Source: a virus (lineage: Duplodnaviria > Heunggongvirae > Uroviricota > Caudoviricetes). From it: a stretch of 34,387 nucleotides of DNA. Positions 16,596 through 31,385 of this stretch are shown piece by piece. The DNA lies in the IMG/VR virus record IMGVR_UViG_3300045988_107065, one strand, 5' to 3'. A program made the position numbers and the translations under genes. The notes under the pieces are model-generated. The model was not told where the DNA came from. It saw only the letters and a list, made by a program, of their open reading frames with translations, and did not search any database. Positions within the stretch are counted from its first letter, which is position 1; every line of letters begins with the position of its first letter.

Positions 16596-17291
16596 TTATT
16601 TGCCATAGAGCACTTCGGCCGCACTACGCTGGCCTTCATTACCACCGGTGACCATGCCATCTTCAGACATCGCCTTTCCGATTTTCACGAACGTTTTGAC
16701 CAGATCAGGGTGATTACCCAGTCCGGTGGTGTTCAGATATTCTTTGAGTTCAGGTGTCCCGAACTGGTCAAGCGCACGCTGTGCGGCGCTAAGGTTAGAA
16801 ATCAACTTGTCGCCACCGATTTCTTTGTCAGCTTTTACATCCGCAGCCCACTGCTCGGTTGTTTTCTGCCAGGCTTCTGCCTGGCGCTGCTGAACACCTG
16901 CCAGAATCTTCGGATAAGCATCAACCAGCTTTTGCGCTTGCTCGTTGGTCAGGTTTAGTTCTCGCGCCACCGGCTCGAATTCCTTCAACGCTTCTGTATC
17001 CAGCTCTACGCCTTCGGCAGCCTGAAACTCGTACTTCTCAGGCGCACCCTCTGGTTTATCGCCGCCCTTTTTTTCATCCTGCTTATCGTTTTCAGGCTTT
17101 TTGTCATCAGCAGGTTTATCGCCATCAGCAACAGGTTGTGGCTTATCACCTTCCGGTTGTGATGGATCACCAACTGGAGCAGGGTTATCACCTGCAGGCG
17201 CTGACGGTTCTGACGCAGCCGGAGCTGCTCCACCATCGACTGGTTGCTCATTGCAAAGACGGCGATACAGCAAACGCTCAAATAAATTCAT
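16596..17291 (-). CDS. Scaffolding protein (acidic, Pro/Asp/Lys-rich, helical C-terminus)
   Basis: Composition and position between portal and capsid; ATG at 17291 with AGGAG 5 nt upstream. Confidence 0.55.
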   Translation of the reverse strand: MNLFERLLYRRLCNEQPVDGGAAPAASEPSAPAGDNPAPVGDPSQPEGDKPQPVADGDKPADDKKPENDKQDEKKGGDKPEGAPEKYEFQAAEGVELDTEALKEFEPVARELNLTNEQAQKLVDAYPKILAGVQQRQAEAWQKTTEQWAADVKADKEIGGDKLISNLSAAQRALDQFGTPELKEYLNTTGLGNHPDLVKTFVKIGKAMSEDGMVTGGNEGQRSAAEVLYGK

Positions 17292-19914: not shown

Positions 19915-19991
19915 GTGGCATTAGCTCAGTTGGACAGAGCAACCGCCTTCTAAGCGGTTGGTCGCAGGTTCGAATCCTGCATGCCACGCCA
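19915..19991 (+). tRNA. tRNA-Arg (anticodon UCU)
   Basis: Cloverleaf folded by hand: acceptor GTGGCAT/ATGCCAC, D-arm GCTC/GAGC, anticodon stem ACCGC/GCGGT with loop CTTCTAA, T-arm GCAGG-TTCGAAT-CCTGC, discriminator G and encoded CCA; 77 nt. Confidence 0.9.
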
Positions 19992-25011: not shown

Positions 25012-25620
25012 TCATGCCGATCTATTTTTCATCAGTGATTCATAAAACTTTTGCCACTTATGCCGACCGAAATTAGCCTTCGAGTTACAGCTCGAACAAA
25101 GGCAAATAAGGTTCTCCTGACGACAGTCTTGCTTGTCGTAATTGATGTGATGAGTTGTTAGCCTTTTGTCTGTTCCATCACAACCTGGGTTCTGACAAGT
25201 AAAACCATCTCGCTCAATAACCCTCTTGCTCGTTTCTCGGAAATCCCACGGATACGGCAATCTCGATAATCCACCAGACCAGTTTGGATTTCCTTCCCCC
25301 TTCATCAGAGAAGAACGCATTATGTTGGAACACTGTTTCGAGCAGCATTTATGACGCTTCTCATGACTCAAGAAAACGGAGAACGAAGATCCGCATACGC
25401 AGCATATTTTTAATACTCGCTTTAGTTCCCGATTTACCGTCTTGCCTCGCTGTGAAATTCCTACACACTGAAGTGAGCAGAACCTTGAAGATGAGTTGGC
25501 TCGCTTAACCTGATATTGCCTGCCACATACGGAACAAACCTTTTCGATTTTCCCACCCTTCCAATTCGGGTTTTTATCACCGGATACAATCAATCCCGCA
25601 GCATTGGGCTTCTCGCTCAT
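25012..25620 (-). CDS. HNH endonuclease with two N-terminal zinc-ribbon repeats
   Basis: HNH-like core (TTHHINYDK...NLICLCSSCNSKANFGRH); duplicated NPNW(K/S)GG...C-x2-C...C-x3-C units. Confidence 0.75.
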   Translation of the reverse strand: MSEKPNAAGLIVSGDKNPNWKGGKIEKVCSVCGRQYQVKRANSSSRFCSLQCVGISQRGKTVNRELKRVLKICCVCGSSFSVFLSHEKRHKCCSKQCSNIMRSSLMKGEGNPNWSGGLSRLPYPWDFRETSKRVIERDGFTCQNPGCDGTDKRLTTHHINYDKQDCRQENLICLCSSCNSKANFGRHKWQKFYESLMKNRSA

Positions 25621-25970
25621 AGTTCCTCAACCTCCCATCCACCACCGAGCTTTTTAGGTTTTGGATAAGCAACCTGAAAGACAAACGGATAGCTGTCTGC
25701 CGCAACCTTCATCTTGACTCTCGCATCGTCAGTAAAGACTGACTTACTTCCCTTAACGTCCACCATCACCAACTGCCCGTCAGCCAACATCACGGCAAAA
25801 TCTACAGTCAGGAAGCAGTTGTCAGCTAATCGCAGCTTGATACCCTCAAATCGATACCAGGCGATTTCCCCTGCACGTTTACGCAGCTCAAGGTGCTGGC
25901 AATACGCAGATTCTGTTTTGTTCATCTGGCCTGTTTTGAGTCGACCAAGAGCCTGTATCTGTTTTCTCAT
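25617..25970 (-). CDS. Small phage protein (117 aa), possible PD-(D/E)XK-fold nuclease (DUF1064-like)
   Basis: TVDFAV...VDVKG arrangement resembles a D...(D/E)-x-K nuclease core; assignment tentative. Confidence 0.4.
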   Translation of the reverse strand: MRKQIQALGRLKTGQMNKTESAYCQHLELRKRAGEIAWYRFEGIKLRLADNCFLTVDFAVMLADGQLVMVDVKGSKSVFTDDARVKMKVAADSYPFVFQVAYPKPKKLGGGWEVEEL

Positions 25971-25973
25971 GAT

Positions 25974-25988
25974 TTACCTCTGAGGTAA
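25974..25988. promoter_or_regulatory. TTACC-N5-GGTAA palindrome (site 5), overlapping the RBS of the 25617-25970 gene
   Basis: atttaccTCTGAggtaatt. Confidence 0.45.
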
Positions 25989-26035
25989 TTAAAAACCACA
26001 TAAGACACGAAATCAATAGAGTTTAGAATATTTTG

Positions 26036-26050
26036 TTACCCTACAGGTAA
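26036..26050. promoter_or_regulatory. TTACC-N5-GGTAA palindrome (site 6)
   Basis: gttaccCTACAggtaatt. Confidence 0.45.
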
Positions 26051-26087
26051 TTATCAAGGCGTAAAAAAATGCGCTATCGCGCTGGTA

Positions 26088-26888
26088 TTACTTGATAAAT
26101 CCTGCCGCCTTTCCCCGCCTGTATTCCTCCATCAGCCACTGAGCCGGTGTTATTCCCCCAAGGGTGGCGGCGTTAGGCATGCACCCGAAACTTCGCCCTG
26201 GTGGATGGTAAACGTCTCCCCCTGTGTCCGGAGGTGTACTCATGGGTTCTGGCTTTGCCTGTATGCTGATCACCGGATCGGGTATCTGCTGTCCGGAAGC
26301 CACCTTTTTCGCCCAATCATCGAGCAGCCTGCGCGCGTGTTTCTCAACCTCAATCTCGCTAAGCTGGCGCTGATACATTGCACGGCGTGTATCACATACG
26401 ACCCAGTACATAACAGGATGCCGCCACGGGAATCTTTCGGGACCACCAGGATATAAACTTTTTTCCTTGCTGTACCGGTGAAACTCCGCCATCACATCGT
26501 CAATGGTGACGCCAAGAACCATCTTGCTGTCTTTACACCACTTGATGAATTGCCCTGGCGACGGCCAGAACGGAGACTCACTGGCGCGGGCGTGGCGCAT
26601 ACCAGCAGAAACCTGTTCACGGGTTCGGATCCCCCCTTCGGCAAACGCAGCAATCCACTGCTGTTTTGCAGCAACTTCCTGCTCTGGCGTCTTCAGGTTG
26701 GTTACCACTGCCGCCGGAAACAGCTGTTTCAGCTGTTTGAAAAGGGCATCAACAAGCCTCTCTGCTGACATGTTCACCACATTGTCATTGTTGACGTACT
26801 GATGCTCATAACCTGACATGCGAGAAAGGGCTTCTCCGTCACGGTTTTGTATCGCGGTAAAAACGTTGTTCACAAGAAATCCTCCCAT
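26088..26888 (-). CDS. Replication protein P-like (helicase loader)
   Basis: Strong resemblance to lambda P core (QQWIAAFAEGGIRTREQVSAGMRHARASESPFWPSPGQFIKWCKD vs RQWVLAFRENGITTMEQVNAGMRVARRQNRPFLPSPGQFVAWCRE, lambda P recalled from memory). Confidence 0.8.
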   Translation of the reverse strand: MGGFLVNNVFTAIQNRDGEALSRMSGYEHQYVNNDNVVNMSAERLVDALFKQLKQLFPAAVVTNLKTPEQEVAAKQQWIAAFAEGGIRTREQVSAGMRHARASESPFWPSPGQFIKWCKDSKMVLGVTIDDVMAEFHRYSKEKSLYPGGPERFPWRHPVMYWVVCDTRRAMYQRQLSEIEVEKHARRLLDDWAKKVASGQQIPDPVISIQAKPEPMSTPPDTGGDVYHPPGRSFGCMPNAATLGGITPAQWLMEEYRRGKAAGFIK

Positions 26889-27685
26889 GCTTCAGGGCTG
26901 TTCCAGTGCGGAACGTTGTTATCAGGTAATGTTGATTGCTTCTGTCTGCTAATCTGCAGCCGCCTTGCCAGCTTCTGCTCCCACTGTGCCTGATGGTATG
27001 CCTTACCCTCAGCCATCCAGTAAATTCTGAACTCTGCAAGTTCCTGTGCCGTTGGCAGACTGTCCAGGTAGATCCCCTGCAATGAGCTTTTCCGAAGAAA
27101 GTCATCTGATGGCTGCCATTGTTCATGCATGACAAATTTGCCTAATTGCCCTGGCCCACCAGGAGGAACAAAGTTATTCATCACGGCGTTGTTTGCGTTG
27201 GGGTCATGATGCACAGAATCCCCGTTTTTTGTCCTGCTCTCCCTCTCTTGGTTAAATGACTGGTTATATGACTGGTTCTGGATCCCGTTTTTGGGATCAT
27301 TCAACATCCCGTTTTTGGGATCATTCAACATCCCGTTTTTGGGTATATTCCCGTTTTCGGTAACATTACCGTTTTCGGGTTCATTGCCCCCCTCCCGGTT
27401 GCCTTTAATGTTCCCGTTTTTGGTTATATTAAGAGAGAAAACCCGCACTCTTTTTGTCGCTCCCTTTCTCTCTCCGGTATCTGAAATAAGCCCCATTTTC
27501 ATGAGCGATATAAGTCCGGCCTGCACGGTTTTTTTATTCAGGCAAGTGTCTTTAACGAGGCGTTCTATGCTGGGGTAGCAGAGGTTATATTCATCGGCTC
27601 TGTCAGCCATCGAGAGCAGTATGAGCTTTAATGATGAGCTACCTGGATCTGTCTCCCAGGCCCAATCTGTTGCATGTCTGCTCAT
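26870..27685 (-). CDS. Replication initiator, lambda O-like (N-terminal HTH, C-terminal DnaT-like region) containing the origin iterons
   Basis: N-terminal HTH-type region; Asn/Gly repeat segment encoded by DNA iterons; immediately upstream of the P-like gene. Confidence 0.65.
   Translation of the reverse strand: MSRHATDWAWETDPGSSSLKLILLSMADRADEYNLCYPSIERLVKDTCLNKKTVQAGLISLMKMGLISDTGERKGATKRVRVFSLNITKNGNIKGNREGGNEPENGNVTENGNIPKNGMLNDPKNGMLNDPKNGIQNQSYNQSFNQERESRTKNGDSVHHDPNANNAVMNNFVPPGGPGQLGKFVMHEQWQPSDDFLRKSSLQGIYLDSLPTAQELAEFRIYWMAEGKAYHQAQWEQKLARRLQISRQKQSTLPDNNVPHWNSPEAWEDFL
27282..27425. repeat. Iteron array (putative origin of replication) inside the O-like gene
   Basis: Six copies of CCGTTTT(T/C)GG, including two perfect 24 bp tandem units (atcccgtttttgggatcattcaac). 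Confidence 0.65.
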
Positions 27686-27700
27686 GATTAATCTCCGCTA

Positions 27701-27901
27701 TCAGCTTGAGTGTTGTGGGGAGGAATTAATCATGATCTGCTTAATCTCTGCCCTGATGCGACGGTTTGATTCCATGGTGCACTCAACACAGTGTCCGTTG
27801 TAAACCCAGCGTTCACTGTCATGTCCGTGCTTACATGGTTTTCCGGTGTAGTAGCGTTTAAGTCCGCGCTTTGCGGCATCAATACGTGTAATGATTTCCA
27901 T
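27701..27901 (-). CDS. Small Cys/His-rich putative zinc-ribbon protein (about 67 aa)
   Basis: GKPCKHGH...GHCVEC motif; ATG at 27901 (track ORF extends upstream). Confidence 0.4.
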   Translation of the reverse strand: MEIITRIDAAKRGLKRYYTGKPCKHGHDSERWVYNGHCVECTMESNRRIRAEIKQIMINSSPQHSS

Positions 27902-27981
27902 GGTAAGCCCTGTTATTAGTATTGGGATTACGGTTATTTTGTGCTGACACAAAAAAAAGATCAACCATATTTGGTTTTTTA

Positions 27982-27996
27982 TTACCTTTGAGGTAC
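27982..27996. promoter_or_regulatory. TTACC-N5-GGTAC palindrome (site 7, one mismatch)
   Basis: attaccTTTGAggtacg. Confidence 0.35.
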
Positions 27997-28051
27997 GAAT
28001 AGATATGAAAAGACCGCCGGATGGCGGTCTACAGAGGGTTGTGGCTGGATA

Positions 28052-28282
28052 TCATGAGTAGAAGAAGTATGCCAGTTCTGCTTTTGAGCGCAGCCATTGT
28101 CTTGATTTACAGGCTTTAAAAAGCCCATCCATCAATACCTTACCTGGCATTTTGCGCTTACCTGTTAAGTGAGTCTGGATATAGTGACTCGTCGTTCCGG
28201 CTTCCTGTGCGAAGGCTTCACGCTCATCCGGAGTAAGTGCAAGCCAGTGCTTTTTGAAATCGAAATGTCCGTTATCGCTCAT
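28052..28282 (-). CDS. Cro-like HTH DNA-binding protein (76 aa)
   Basis: HTH segment EAGTTSHYIQTHLTGKRKMP resembles Cro/YdaS-type HTH; first gene of the minus-strand operon, divergent from the repressor. Confidence 0.6.
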   Translation of the reverse strand: MSDNGHFDFKKHWLALTPDEREAFAQEAGTTSHYIQTHLTGKRKMPGKVLMDGLFKACKSRQWLRSKAELAYFFYS

Positions 28283-28318
28283 AGCTATTGCCTGATATTT
28301 ATTTCAGATAATAAATAT

Positions 28319-28381
28319 TCACCTATAAGGTAACAAAAATCAAGGATAGTTACCCATGAGGTGCATTTACCTGTTGGGTAA
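28319..28381. promoter_or_regulatory. Divergent promoter/operator region with three adjacent palindromic sites (two imperfect, one perfect TTACC-N5-GGTAA)
   Basis: tcaccTATAAggtaa (28319-28333), ttaccCATGAggtgc (28350-28364), ttaccTGTTGggtaa (28367-28381) between the divergent cro-like and repressor genes. Confidence 0.55.
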
Positions 28382-28436
28382 TATTGCTTTAAATTGAATC
28401 ATCTTCTGATTCAGATATGAGGCGATTTTCCAGAAA

Positions 28437-29021
28437 ATGAAAAGTATCCAGGACGTCCGCAGGCAAAATCTCAACGACTTGATCGACCGTGAATTCAATG
28501 GTGTTCAGACGCGGATGGCTGAAAAACTTGGAACTCAGGCAAATCTGGTAAACCGCTGGGCTCTTGGCAAGAAGGTTATCGGCGACCAGGTTGCGCGAAA
28601 AATTGAAGCTGCCGCCAATAAACCCCGTAACTGGCTTGATATCGATCGCTCGCTTTCTCAGGAAGGTTTTCAGCCTGTCGGACCAAGCGACATTGGTCAA
28701 CTGGCGGCTCACAACCTGGAACGCTGGATGAGCGAAAGCCGCGACCTTTCAACGCAGGGAAAACTTCACCGCGCATCCGGCGTCGCCCAGGTGACAATCA
28801 GCCGCCTGTTAAACAATGAGGTCAGCGTTTCCATTTCCACCCTGGAGAATGTTGCATCCGCATTCGGGCGTCACGGCTATGAATTACTGATTCACCCGCA
28901 CGACCCTGCGACTATCAACTATGACCGCTCGCGCTACGCTTTGTTACCCGAAACCGAGAAAGCAAAGATCGAAAGTTACATTGAATTTGTCATCAACCAG
29001 AACGAAAAAAACAAACAATAA
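28437..29021 (+). CDS. Repressor-like protein with two tandem XRE-type HTH domains and no peptidase domain
   Basis: Two HTH-like segments (QTRMAEKLGTQANLVNRW; ASGVAQVTISRLLNNE); no Ser/Lys S24 autocleavage motifs seen. Confidence 0.65.
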   Translation: MKSIQDVRRQNLNDLIDREFNGVQTRMAEKLGTQANLVNRWALGKKVIGDQVARKIEAAANKPRNWLDIDRSLSQEGFQPVGPSDIGQLAAHNLERWMSESRDLSTQGKLHRASGVAQVTISRLLNNEVSVSISTLENVASAFGRHGYELLIHPHDPATINYDRSRYALLPETEKAKIESYIEFVINQNEKNKQ

Positions 29022-29629: not shown

Positions 29630-30447
29630 AACCGGGAATTTATTTCGACATCAGCAACGAAGACTACCACGCCGGTGACGGCGTGAGTAAGTCGCAACTG
29701 GACATGGTTGCCAAGAATCCGGCGCTTCTTAAATGGGTTCAGGCAGCACCAGAAGACGAAGAGAAAAAGTCTGCACTGGATATGGGAACCGCATTGCACT
29801 GTCTGCTTCTGGAGCCTGGAGAGTTCGACAAACGCTTCATTGTTTCACCGAAATTCGATCGTCGGACGAAACAAGGTAAAGCTGACGAAGAGGAATTTCT
29901 TCGTGATGTGGCGGATATGGGGATTACGGTACTTGATGCCGAGCAGTGGCGGAAACTGGAGCTGATGCGTGATAGCGCAATGGCTCACCCGGCGGCACGC
30001 TGGATGCTGGAAGCACCTGGTTACTGCGAAGCATCAATGTACTGGAACGATGAAGAGACGGGGGAGTTGTGCCGAATTCGTCCAGACAAATGGCTGAACG
30101 AGCACAACGTGATCGTCGACGTGAAAAAGGTTGCAGATATGGACCGTTTTGCACGCCACATCGAGGAATTCCGCTACCACGTGCAGGACGCAATGTACCG
30201 CGAAGGCGCAATGAGGGTTACTGGTCAGCCGCATGGTTTTTTCTTTCTTGCCGTGAGCGAAAGCATTGATTGTGGTCGGTATCCGGTACGCGTGTTCGAG
30301 CTGGATGCGCAGGATGTCGATGCCGGGCACGCTCTGTTCCGCCGGGATCTGAATACCTATCACGAATGCCGCATCAATGATGAATGGGGCGGTGTGGAAA
30401 TCATTAAACGCCCTGAGTGGGCACGCAAACAGGATATGTACATATGA
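29626..30447 (+). CDS. PD-(D/E)XK recombination exonuclease (RecE C-terminal/DUF3799-like)
   Basis: N-terminal FDISNEDYHAGDGVSKSQL motif, D...DVKK nuclease core; ATGA overlap with RecT-like gene downstream. Confidence 0.7.
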   Translation: MKPGIYFDISNEDYHAGDGVSKSQLDMVAKNPALLKWVQAAPEDEEKKSALDMGTALHCLLLEPGEFDKRFIVSPKFDRRTKQGKADEEEFLRDVADMGITVLDAEQWRKLELMRDSAMAHPAARWMLEAPGYCEASMYWNDEETGELCRIRPDKWLNEHNVIVDVKKVADMDRFARHIEEFRYHVQDAMYREGAMRVTGQPHGFFFLAVSESIDCGRYPVRVFELDAQDVDAGHALFRRDLNTYHECRINDEWGGVEIIKRPEWARKQDMYI

Positions 30448-31385
30448 GCAACGACATCGCAAACATCAACGCACCAGTAGACACAGCAATCGCTGGAACT
30501 GCTGCAACTATTTTCAGCCCAGACGGCTTGAACCAACTGATGAAATTCGCCGAGGTAATGGCGCAAAGCCGCGTAACGGTACCGGCGCACCTCGCCGGGA
30601 AACCAGCTGATTGCATGGCCGTGGCAATGCAGGCTGCGCAGTGGGGAATGAACCCGTTTGCCGTGGCTCAGAAAACCCATGTTGTGAACGGCACGCTAGG
30701 TTATGAAGCCCAATTAGTAAACGCAGTTATCTCAACGATGTCGCCAACAAAAGATCGCATCAACTACGAGTGGTTCGGGCCGTGGGAACGCGTGATCGGT
30801 AAGTTTGTTGAGAAAACATCCAAAAACGGCAATCCATATATCGCACCAGGCTGGACTCTAAAAGACGAAGAAGGCTGCGGTGTTCGCGTATGGGCAACCA
30901 TGAAGGGCGAGGATCAACCTCGAGTGCTTGAGTTAATGCTGTCTCAAGCACAGGTAAGAAACTCCACACTTTGGGCCAGTGATCCGAAACAACAACTCGC
31001 ATACCTTGCGACAAAACGCTGGTCTCGCCTGCACTGTCCTGACGTAATCATGGGCGTCTACACCCCAGACGAATTACAGGAAACGGCACCGCGCGTTGAG
31101 CGAGACATTACTCCGCAAACGACCACTGCTGCGGGAATGAACAGTCTGATCAACGCTAAACCAGCGAAAAAGCCTGATGAGCAAACGCGTAAATCGGACA
31201 GCCGTGATCCAGAAGAAATGCTGATGGCCTTTACCAGCGCAGCGATGAATTACAGCACTGTCTCCGAACTGGATAAGGCTTACAAATACATTGCACAAAA
31301 ACTTTCAGATGATGACGAACTGCTGGCAAAAGCCACCGACGTTTACAGCGTTCGTCGGGAAGAATTAAACGAAACATCTATGTAA
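30444..31385 (+). CDS. recT: RecT-family single-strand annealing protein
   Basis: Sequence characteristic of the RecT family; coupled to the exonuclease gene (start ATG at 30444 overlapping the upstream TGA). Confidence 0.8.
   Translation: MSNDIANINAPVDTAIAGTAATIFSPDGLNQLMKFAEVMAQSRVTVPAHLAGKPADCMAVAMQAAQWGMNPFAVAQKTHVVNGTLGYEAQLVNAVISTMSPTKDRINYEWFGPWERVIGKFVEKTSKNGNPYIAPGWTLKDEEGCGVRVWATMKGEDQPRVLELMLSQAQVRNSTLWASDPKQQLAYLATKRWSRLHCPDVIMGVYTPDELQETAPRVERDITPQTTTAAGMNSLINAKPAKKPDEQTRKSDSRDPEEMLMAFTSAAMNYSTVSELDKAYKYIAQKLSDDDELLAKATDVYSVRREELNETSM

Follow-up and report, generated by a model that had tools for sequence, protein, structure and literature searches.

Introduction

In bacteriophage lambda, the origin of replication lies within the gene for its initiator protein, O: direct repeats (iterons) occupy the linker-coding middle of the gene, and the gene for P, the helicase loader, is directly next to it (PMC7466680). 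The lambda origin has four iterons of 18–19 bp, as well as a tract that is 80% AT. In the Stx phages 933W and P27, duplication of the repeat unit has given six iterons, and replication is not efficient without the extra copies (PMC7466680). Here, we analyze an iteron array in a 34,387-nucleotide stretch of DNA from a virus of the class Caudoviricetes (IMG/VR record IMGVR_UViG_3300045988_107065). We call this entire stretch the window, and all positions refer to it. The array lies inside the coding sequence of a replication gene on the - strand (26870–27685), and we conclude that it is likely to be the initiator-binding part of this phage's origin of replication. The six repeats are most likely binding sites for the HTH_36 domain of the same protein whose linker they are predicted to encode. 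An in-gene origin is textbook knowledge for lambda, one is expected here, and the underlying sequence was already public. The finding extends the lambda paradigm to another family of initiators and does not overturn the current understanding.

Origins of other kinds are also relevant. In the iteron plasmids (F, R6K, RK2, and pSC101) and at oriC, with its 13-mers, arrays of initiator-binding sites adjoin short direct repeats, and these short repeats form the unwinding element. The plasmid iterons are outside the rep gene, and the Rep_3 proteins have two winged-helix domains. A relative of the O/P pair has also been described in bacterial genomes: DopC and DopE are a domesticated O/P-like pair in Cellvibrionales and Oceanospirillales, and their loci are reported to have no iterons and not to serve as origins (PMC5509034).

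Over the array region, sequence comparison shows 98% identity to Escherichia phage phiV10 and other Uetakevirus (epsilon15-like) phages, and we identify the source of the window as a phiV10-like Uetakevirus, not a classical lambdoid phage. Below, we report the sequence anatomy of the array, the domain content of the initiator, the gene order, and the comparative patterns among relatives as they were observed.

Six iterons within the initiator gene

A reading of the window that was made without any database searches (the sequence-only reading) had noticed six copies of CCGTTTT(T/C)GG in the initiator gene. All six are exact matches to CCGTTTTYGG on the + strand, starting at 27285, 27309, 27333, 27351, 27369, and 27414. 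By chance, 0.15 matches would be expected in the window, and 0 of 100 shuffles reached the seven matches that the window contains. We also scanned the whole window, in 200-bp intervals, for near-exact recurrences of 9-mers. The interval 27251–27450 had the top direct-repeat score of the 34-kb window (130; the second-ranked interval scored 29, and the median was 2). Given the counts in shuffles and the window-wide top score, the earlier observation was accurate and is far beyond chance. The seventh match (CCGTTTTTGG) is on the - strand at 30820–30829, within a RecT-like gene (30417–31385), and this distant match probably arose by chance. The runner-up cluster of repeats, at 17026–17225, includes a loose 15-bp repeat of 2.9 copies (CTTTTTGTCATCAGG, 17067–17110).

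Tandem Repeats Finder identified a 24-bp unit with 2.6 copies at 100% identity (27282–27343) and an overlapping 18-bp unit with 3.1 copies (27331–27385). The perfect 24-bp tandem that had been described is thus present, and it extends beyond the two copies that had been counted. All six copies belong to one repeat family, with start-to-start spacings of 24, 24, 18, 18, and 45 bp.

Each iteron is a 16-bp unit, and the intervals between units are 2–8 bp, except for one of 29 bp. The unit is a dyad with 5-bp inverted arms (ATCCC and GGGAT) around an A5C core; on the coding strand, the sequence of the best copies is GATCCCAAAAACGGGATC. The sixth iteron in coding order (27282–27297; ATCCCGTTTTTGGGAT on the + strand and ATCCCAAAAACGGGAT on the coding strand) has perfect 5-bp dyad arms around A5C, and the fifth (27306–27321), which is within the perfect 24-bp tandem, is identical to it. 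The fourth iteron is at 27330–27345 (ATCCCGTTTTTGGGTA). The third (27348–27363; TTCCCGTTTTCGGTAA) and the second (27366–27381; TTACCGTTTTCGGGTT) are at the 18-bp spacing; on the coding strand, these two read CCGAAAACGG, and their arms are themselves palindromic. The first iteron (27411–27426; TTCCCGTTTTTGGTTA) is 45 bp from the next copy. It immediately follows the final codon of the HTH domain and lies within the gene's least stable 40-mer (27403–27442). A degenerate seventh iteron-like copy (27218–27233; ATCCCCGTTTTTTGTC) is polymorphic among close relatives, with nucleotide diversity (pi) of up to 0.6, and is probably not functional.

Several other features of the array can be read from its sequence. 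The iteron arms form three GATC (Dam/SeqA) sites within 42 bp (27281–27322), which ties for the densest cluster in the window. GATC is also found in the iterons of Edwardsiella phage GF-2 and Acinetobacter phage AB1 and not in those of Vibrio phage Her. The core of iterons 2 and 3 (ACCGAAAACGG, 27348–27381) resembles the papillomavirus E2 binding site (ACCGAAAACGGT). When the literature was searched for the sequence, E2 sites were the only context in which this motif turned up, and we attribute the likeness to coincidence or to convergence of A-tract-spaced dyads. Terminator-like matches on the + strand at 27292–27335 are not terminators; they are half-sites of neighboring iterons that pair on the antisense strand.

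The initiator and its linker

The array corresponds to nucleotides 259–411 of the open reading frame (ORF) at 26870–27685, which encodes a protein of 271 amino acids (PHROG 1032, 1.9e-108), and it lies between two recognizable domains. Amino acids 1–87 (27425–27685) form a winged-helix domain of the HTH_36 family (Pfam, 1.8e-10, with the match at amino acids 18–67). Amino acids 88 to about 180 are the iteron-encoded Asn/Gly linker. Amino acids 181–265 (26891–27145) form a DnaT-like domain, of the type that binds single-stranded DNA (Pfam, 1.1e-15, with the match at amino acids 184–252). The claim that the repeats are within a coding sequence and encode an Asn/Gly-rich linker holds: Asn and Gly make up 42% of a 60-residue linker, as compared with 11% of the remainder of the protein. 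Since all of the spacings in the array are multiples of 3, each core reads (T/P)(K/E)NG. When the copies are compared, the core is invariant at its silent third positions (xCC, AAC), and it is the first positions that vary, which changes the encoded residue (T/P, K/E).

The sequence-only reading had called this initiator O-like, which fits its architecture and probable role but not its sequence. BLASTP found no significant similarity to lambda O. In Pfam, the N-terminal domain (N-domain) matches HTH_36 and not Phage_rep_O, while lambda O itself matches PF04492 at 5.7e-36. Similarly, the C-terminal domain (C-domain) is DnaT-like and is not of the P-interacting type found in lambda O. A profile search with the N-domain against the sequences in PDB gave nothing significant. 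The C-domain matches DnaT chains in PDB with E values of about 1e-20, and the C-terminal 85 residues of the initiator align to residues 85–170 of E. coli DnaT (PDB 6aep, 4ou6, 2ru8, and 9zbt). DnaT differs in that it has no HTH_36 domain, its gene has no iterons, and it acts in PriA-dependent restart rather than in origin recognition. In GenBank, the homologous gene of phiV10 is named “putative primosomal protein.” Judging from the domain content, labels such as “primosomal protein” or “DnaT” describe just the C-terminal domain of the initiator and are misleading. A remote link between the N terminus of lambda O and HTH_36 has been reported using HHpred (PMC5509034).

The next gene encodes a helicase loader of the lambda P family (26088–26888, - strand; PF06992, 1.5e-56; PHROG 109, 5e-92). 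Its likely start is a GTG at 26873 that overlaps the stop codon of the initiator (GTGA), with a Shine-Dalgarno sequence (GGGAGGA) at 26880–26886, as read on the - strand. This 4-nucleotide overlap of the initiator and P-like genes is also present in the annotation of phiV10.

Overall, the array extends from the first codon past the HTH_36 domain to a point short of the DnaT-like domain, and the P gene is next, which is the O-ori-P layout of lambda (PMC7466680). When the iterons are compared with those of lambda, as the sequence-only reading had suggested, the resemblance is clear: both are dyad-symmetric direct repeats with an A-tract (ATCCCTCAAAACGAGGGA in lambda and ATCCCAAAAACGGGAT here), and the spacings are about 18–24 bp in both. 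The two systems differ in the number and size of the sites (four of 18–19 bp in lambda and six of 16 bp here), in that all of the copies here are in one reading frame, and in that conserved 12-mers (described below) take the place of the AT-rich tract. Furthermore, lambda O belongs to PF04492, whereas the initiator here combines an HTH_36 N-domain with a DnaT-like C-domain and has no sequence similarity to O. The Stx phages 933W and P27 also have more than four iterons, but they have initiators of the lambda O family, iterons of the lambda type, and an AT-rich tract. 

As in the iteron plasmids and oriC, an array of predicted initiator sites adjoins short direct repeats. Unlike the plasmid iterons, those of this phage are inside the initiator gene. 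DopC/DopE have the same architecture as the pair described here, namely an HTH_36 N-domain with a DnaT C-terminal domain (DnaT_C), followed by a P-family protein (PMC5509034); the pair in the window differs in being phage-borne and in having a full iteron array. Because the HTH_36–DnaT_C combination occurs in phage initiators that bear iterons, the fusion to DnaT_C need not stem from domestication. These phages also provide a counterpart for the domesticated helicase-loading pair.

Conservation of the array among relatives

To see how the array behaves across relatives of the initiator, we gathered relatives of the N-domain from GenBank phages and from IMG/VR. These include 34 distinct variants of the N-domain, with 33–100% identity, from about 8 lineages: the phiV10 type; a relative with a 68% identical N-domain; GF-2; the Her type (59–100%); AB1; E. 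coli PPompW; the type of Burkholderia phage Bcep176 (81–100%); and Stx2a_F403. For 34 of 34 variants, the 200 bp directly 3' of the N-domain is the top direct-repeat window of its 2–4-kb locus. The core CCC(A/G)AAA(A/T)(C/T)GG is repeated in most of the lineages (Her, GF-2, AB1, PPompW, Bcep176, and relatives from IMG/VR). In relatives, the cores are also spaced by 17, 22, 23, or 25 bp, so the core falls in all three reading frames.

Frame usage can also be seen in the proteins. An exhaustive HMMER search with the 87-amino-acid N-domain identified 3,704 clusters (at 50% identity) with E ≤ 1e-3. Among the 150 best matches listed, nearly all of the full-length proteins have the HTH_36-type domain at the extreme N terminus. 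In the linkers of 120 diverse full-length representatives, we counted 259 PKNG-like, 65 QKR(N/D)-like, and 36 PKT(E/D/G)-like translations of the core; outside of the linker, the same 120 proteins have just 1, 5, and 0 of these, respectively. At least one iteron peptide motif is present in 104 of the 120 representatives, and half of them (60 of 120) use at least two frames. Judged from these sequences, the pattern is that of a conserved DNA site that is imposed on a tolerant linker, and not that of a selected peptide repeat.

Close relatives provide a finer view. Across 80 loci from IMG/VR with N-domains that are at least 99% identical to that of the window, the number of cores ranges from 4 to 9, with a mode of 6, and cores are always gained or lost as whole in-frame units. 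Proteins in the databases reach 311 amino acids, with about 11 units. A copy number of 4 to about 11, changing in whole in-frame units, is as expected of an array that is tolerated and functional. When 65 unique genes from close relatives are aligned with MAFFT, the 10-bp cores have pi = 0.005, with 1 of 60 sites above 0.1. For the spacers between cores, pi is 0.032, with 8 of 93 sites above 0.1, so the cores are about 6-fold less polymorphic.

A second repeat element beside the last iteron

On the coding strand, the last iteron is followed by CAGAAC and then by AACCAGTCATAT AACCAGTCATTT AACCAAG. This includes a 12-mer repeat with 2.4 copies at 27249–27277 (TGGTTAAATGAC on the + strand; AACCAGTCAT(A/T)T on the coding strand). 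The junction and the short GAACC-containing repeats after it read CAGAACCAGTCATATAACCAGTCATTTAACCAAG in this phage. The 12-mer element is unchanged across the 65 close relatives, and phiV10 has one extra unit. An equivalent DNA element is found at the same place in distant relatives, namely Her (CAGAACCAGTCATTAGAACCAGTCATAGAACC), GF-2, AB1, Bcep176 (CAGAACAGTAGGAACAGTAGAGAACAGTAGGAACAGTG), and two further relatives, L198 (CAGAACCAGTCATTTAACCAGTCAATGAACC) and L204 (CAGAACCACCCAATAGGAACCACCCAATAGAACC).

Like the iterons, this element is read in differing frames: the 12-nucleotide spacing gives NQSxNQS, and the 13-nucleotide spacing gives NQSLEPxIEP. At the junction, some relatives encode xQN and others xEP, and KRxxEP is also a peptide signature. 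A junction signature is present in 91 of the 120 representatives.

In lambda, the corresponding position is taken by the AT-rich tract, and unwinding elements in other systems contain short direct repeats similar to these 12-mers. We propose, by analogy, that the 12-mer region (27243–27280) would be the melting region, and it is a candidate for a sequence-specific unwinding element. As compared with the elements of iteron plasmids and oriC, the 12-mers have just a moderate AT content, and a role in unwinding is putative.

A model for initiation

The model that we favor is as follows. Leftward early transcription from about 28.3 kb would lead to expression of the initiator and of the translationally coupled P-like loader. 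Dimers of the initiator would bind the ATCCC-A5C-GGGAT dyads via the N-domain and would wrap the A-tract DNA, or bend it, to form a complex resembling the O-some. The adjacent, moderately AT-rich 12-mer region (27243–27280) would then open. The DnaT-like C-domain would contact the P-like loader with the host's DnaB, and possibly the exposed single strand as well, and the host helicase would be loaded. The iterons and the adjacent 12-mers together are thus proposed to form an origin of bidirectional replication. For the binding, the melting, the recruitment of the helicase, and the replication mode, we reason by analogy from lambda (PMC7466680), and theta replication in particular is purely inferred. 

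A candidate early promoter (TTGTTA-17-TATTAT, identified by consensus match) lies on the - strand at 28308–28336, in a divergent control region with 20–22% GC, and could drive transcription through the putative origin. Lambda-type origins require such transcription for activation. The fragment 26088–27700, which the sequence-only reading had proposed for a plasmid replication assay, is without this upstream candidate promoter (28336..28308, - strand).

Alternative explanations for the repeats

The sequence-only reading had cautioned that the repeats could be mistaken for a slippage feature or for something akin to clustered regularly interspaced short palindromic repeats (CRISPR), and we considered both. 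A slippage-prone minisatellite in the coding sequence of a disordered, low-complexity linker, with no function at the DNA level, would account for the perfect 24-bp copies, for the polymorphism of the copy number in whole units (4 to about 11), and for every spacing in this phage being a multiple of 3. Such a repeat should not, however, keep its core across lineages with 33–70% identical N-domains and in all three frames; furthermore, the cores are less polymorphic than the spacers, the sites are dyad-symmetric, and the array vanishes when the N-domain is swapped, which makes a minisatellite very unlikely. We give equally little credence to the idea that a peptide repeat (NDPKNG and similar), as a flexible spacer or an interaction motif, is under selection and that the DNA repeat is its shadow. 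PKNG-like peptides are indeed common in the family and the linker is strongly Asn/Gly-rich, but many members translate the same DNA core as QKR(N/D) or PKT(E/D/G), and the copies allow a charge-reversing change of K to E, whereas their silent positions are fixed. As for a CRISPR-like array or a recognition array for packaging (pac), nothing points to it beyond the regular spacing of short repeats. CRISPR repeats of 23–47 bp are non-coding and are separated by unique spacers of similar length, which is unlike the 16-bp units and intervals of 2–8 bp (once 29 bp) seen here; the array is within a replication gene and co-varies with the DNA-binding domain; and there are no cas or terminase genes nearby. 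We therefore reject these readings, which are effectively refuted by the anatomy of the array, as next to impossible.

The main alternative accepts that the initiator binds these sites but holds that they serve just for autoregulation or copy control (as a roadblock, or via titration or handcuffing), with melting and initiation elsewhere, for example in AT-rich intergenic DNA at 27903–28006 or 26009–26054. The array does lack a strongly AT-rich neighbor, and there is clearly less stable DNA within 500–1300 bp. Plasmid iterons are known to have control roles. Differential use of iterons has also been cited (PMC7466680). However, the same layout in lambda is the origin itself (PMC7466680), and a conserved second repeat element adjoins the last iteron across the family, as expected for the core of an origin. 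In relatives with other neighboring genes, the AT-rich intergenic stretches are outside of the conserved module of N-domain and repeats. Given these arguments, we consider control-only sites to be unlikely.

There are also several points that weigh against the array being part of an origin. A scan of nearest-neighbor stability did not find an AT-rich unwinding element of lambda grade, so in this respect the suggestion of such an element next to the iterons was not borne out. (As a positive control, the same scan recovered the AT-rich tract of lambda as the least stable part of gene O, with dG of -43.0 and 20% GC.) The scan showed weak minima only: the best 40-mer in the gene (27403–27442, at iteron 1) ranks among the top 1.9% of the window, and the promoter-distal flank (27244–27284, about 38–40% GC) among the top 4–6%. 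More AT-rich intergenic stretches nearby (27955–28006 and 26009–26054) could host melting. Within 25900–28500, there are no matches to the DnaA-box (TTWTNCACA) or IHF consensus. All six cores in this phage are in a single reading frame, so the argument from frames depends on the relatives, and the related loci are phylogenetically non-independent. AlphaFold2, run on the single sequence of the initiator, gave a model with a mean predicted local distance difference test score (pLDDT) of 37 and a predicted template modeling score (pTM) of 0.25, which is unusable; the evidence for a winged-helix dimer is therefore the Pfam assignment and the dyad symmetry of the sites. Finally, GenBank has no replication origin annotated for phiV10, and we found no earlier description in the literature on phiV10 or epsilon15 origins or of the iteron sequence. 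Nevertheless, the comparative evidence from sequences strongly supports the claim of a probable lambda-like origin within this initiator gene.

Implications for other phages

If the array is the origin, then the probable origin of phiV10-like (Uetakevirus) phages and of E. coli prophages is placed at about 27.25–27.43 kb. Within the gene, synonymous recoding of the linker could separate the function of the protein from the function of the origin. We are evenly divided on a broader reading of the sequences, in which the array would be one case of a very large class of phage origins. The HTH_36-type initiators of this class, with about 3,700 clusters of proteins (at 50% identity), would carry a conserved bipartite origin in their own linker. 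As part of this reading, the origin would comprise lambda-like CCC(A/G)AAAA(C/T)GG iterons, a CAGAACC junction of conserved sequence, and two to four direct 10–13-mers, (G)AACCAGTCAT. In this class, the 10–13-mers would act as a sequence-specific unwinding element that replaces a mere AT-rich tract. We found no description of such a class of HTH_36 linker origins in the literature. Because the DNA motifs may be read in any frame, the iterons would leave a peptide fingerprint of PKNG, QKRN, or PKTE, and the junction would leave one of QNQS or xEP. If the broader reading is true, an origin could be recognized by its fingerprints from nothing more than the protein sequence, and the family-wide pattern would be an inexpensive guide to origins in the genomes of thousands of phages and prophages. 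Some caution is needed because iteron repeats break assemblies and vary in copy number.

Exchange of the replication module

The “replication protein O” of GF-2 (BAP28933) illustrates how the module can be recombined. Its N-domain, which is 57% identical to that of the initiator described here, and its iterons are joined to a C-domain of the lambda O type (62% identical over 144 amino acids) rather than to a DnaT-like domain, and a P gene follows, as in the window. GF-2 has three perfect iterons at the 24-bp spacing (AATGATCCCAAAATTGGGA) and two degenerate copies in the equivalent position, along with a CAGAAT junction; its iteron core is AAAATT instead of AAAAAC. This chimera indicates that the unit of N-domain and iterons can replace that of lambda.

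In phages ZX5 and TL-2011b, the flanks are 94–98% identical to the window, and precisely 26618–27959 is replaced. The replaced block contains the N-terminal third of P, the entire initiator, and a 66-amino-acid ORF. In its place is an unrelated module, whose N-domain is different and which contains no cluster of iterons (the maximum repeat score is 13). Just 82 bp of the region that encodes the DnaT domain is still 72% similar. In lambda, genetic studies place the contact with O in the N-terminal part of P. The co-transfer of the P N terminus with the initiator would fit such a contact.

Some GenBank records contain the module in odd contexts. In KP869107 and KP869108 (E. coli O157 typing phages 9 and 10), the similarity ends inside the array (window position 27401). 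In one of these typing-phage records, the part that encodes the N-domain is at the opposite end, and the annotation gives the initiator as a truncated “dnaT.” Both records look like assemblies that were broken or linearized at the repeats. A complete phiV10-type replication module (97.6–98.1% identical) is near the end of the record for the rV5-like Escherichia phage BP9 (PP488543.1, 138 kb, Vequintavirus) and also inside the record for phage PH444 (PP350014.1, 115 kb). This suggests that the BP9 and PH444 records are chimeric assemblies or are contaminated with temperate phage.

Neighboring genes and other features of the window

Moving upstream from the initiator, the order is the 66-amino-acid ORF, a terminator-like hairpin, a cro-like ORF, the divergent control region that holds the candidate promoter, and a repressor gene on the other strand. 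The 66-amino-acid ORF (27701–27901, - strand; PHROG 1081, function unknown) is Cys/His-rich, with a CxxxH...CxxC pattern. It has a weak endonuclease-VII-like match and is always co-inherited with the initiator module. The terminator-like hairpin (28011–28030, - strand), which separates the cro-like ORF from the replication genes, is a terminator in the annotation of phiV10.

On the far side of the replication genes, a Cys-rich ORF of 202 amino acids (25012–25620, - strand), 3' of a DUF1064 gene, has weak matches to HNH_3 and zf-HIT and could represent an early-region insertion akin to a homing endonuclease. Searches against Rfam identified no RNA family in the array region. Elsewhere in the window, Rfam identified isrK (1303–1378) with a C4 antisense RNA adjacent to it (1403–1488), a side-by-side layout that we take to be typical of P1/P7-type antirepressor control. 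The window also includes a tRNA-Arg gene (anticodon TCT) at 19915–19991.

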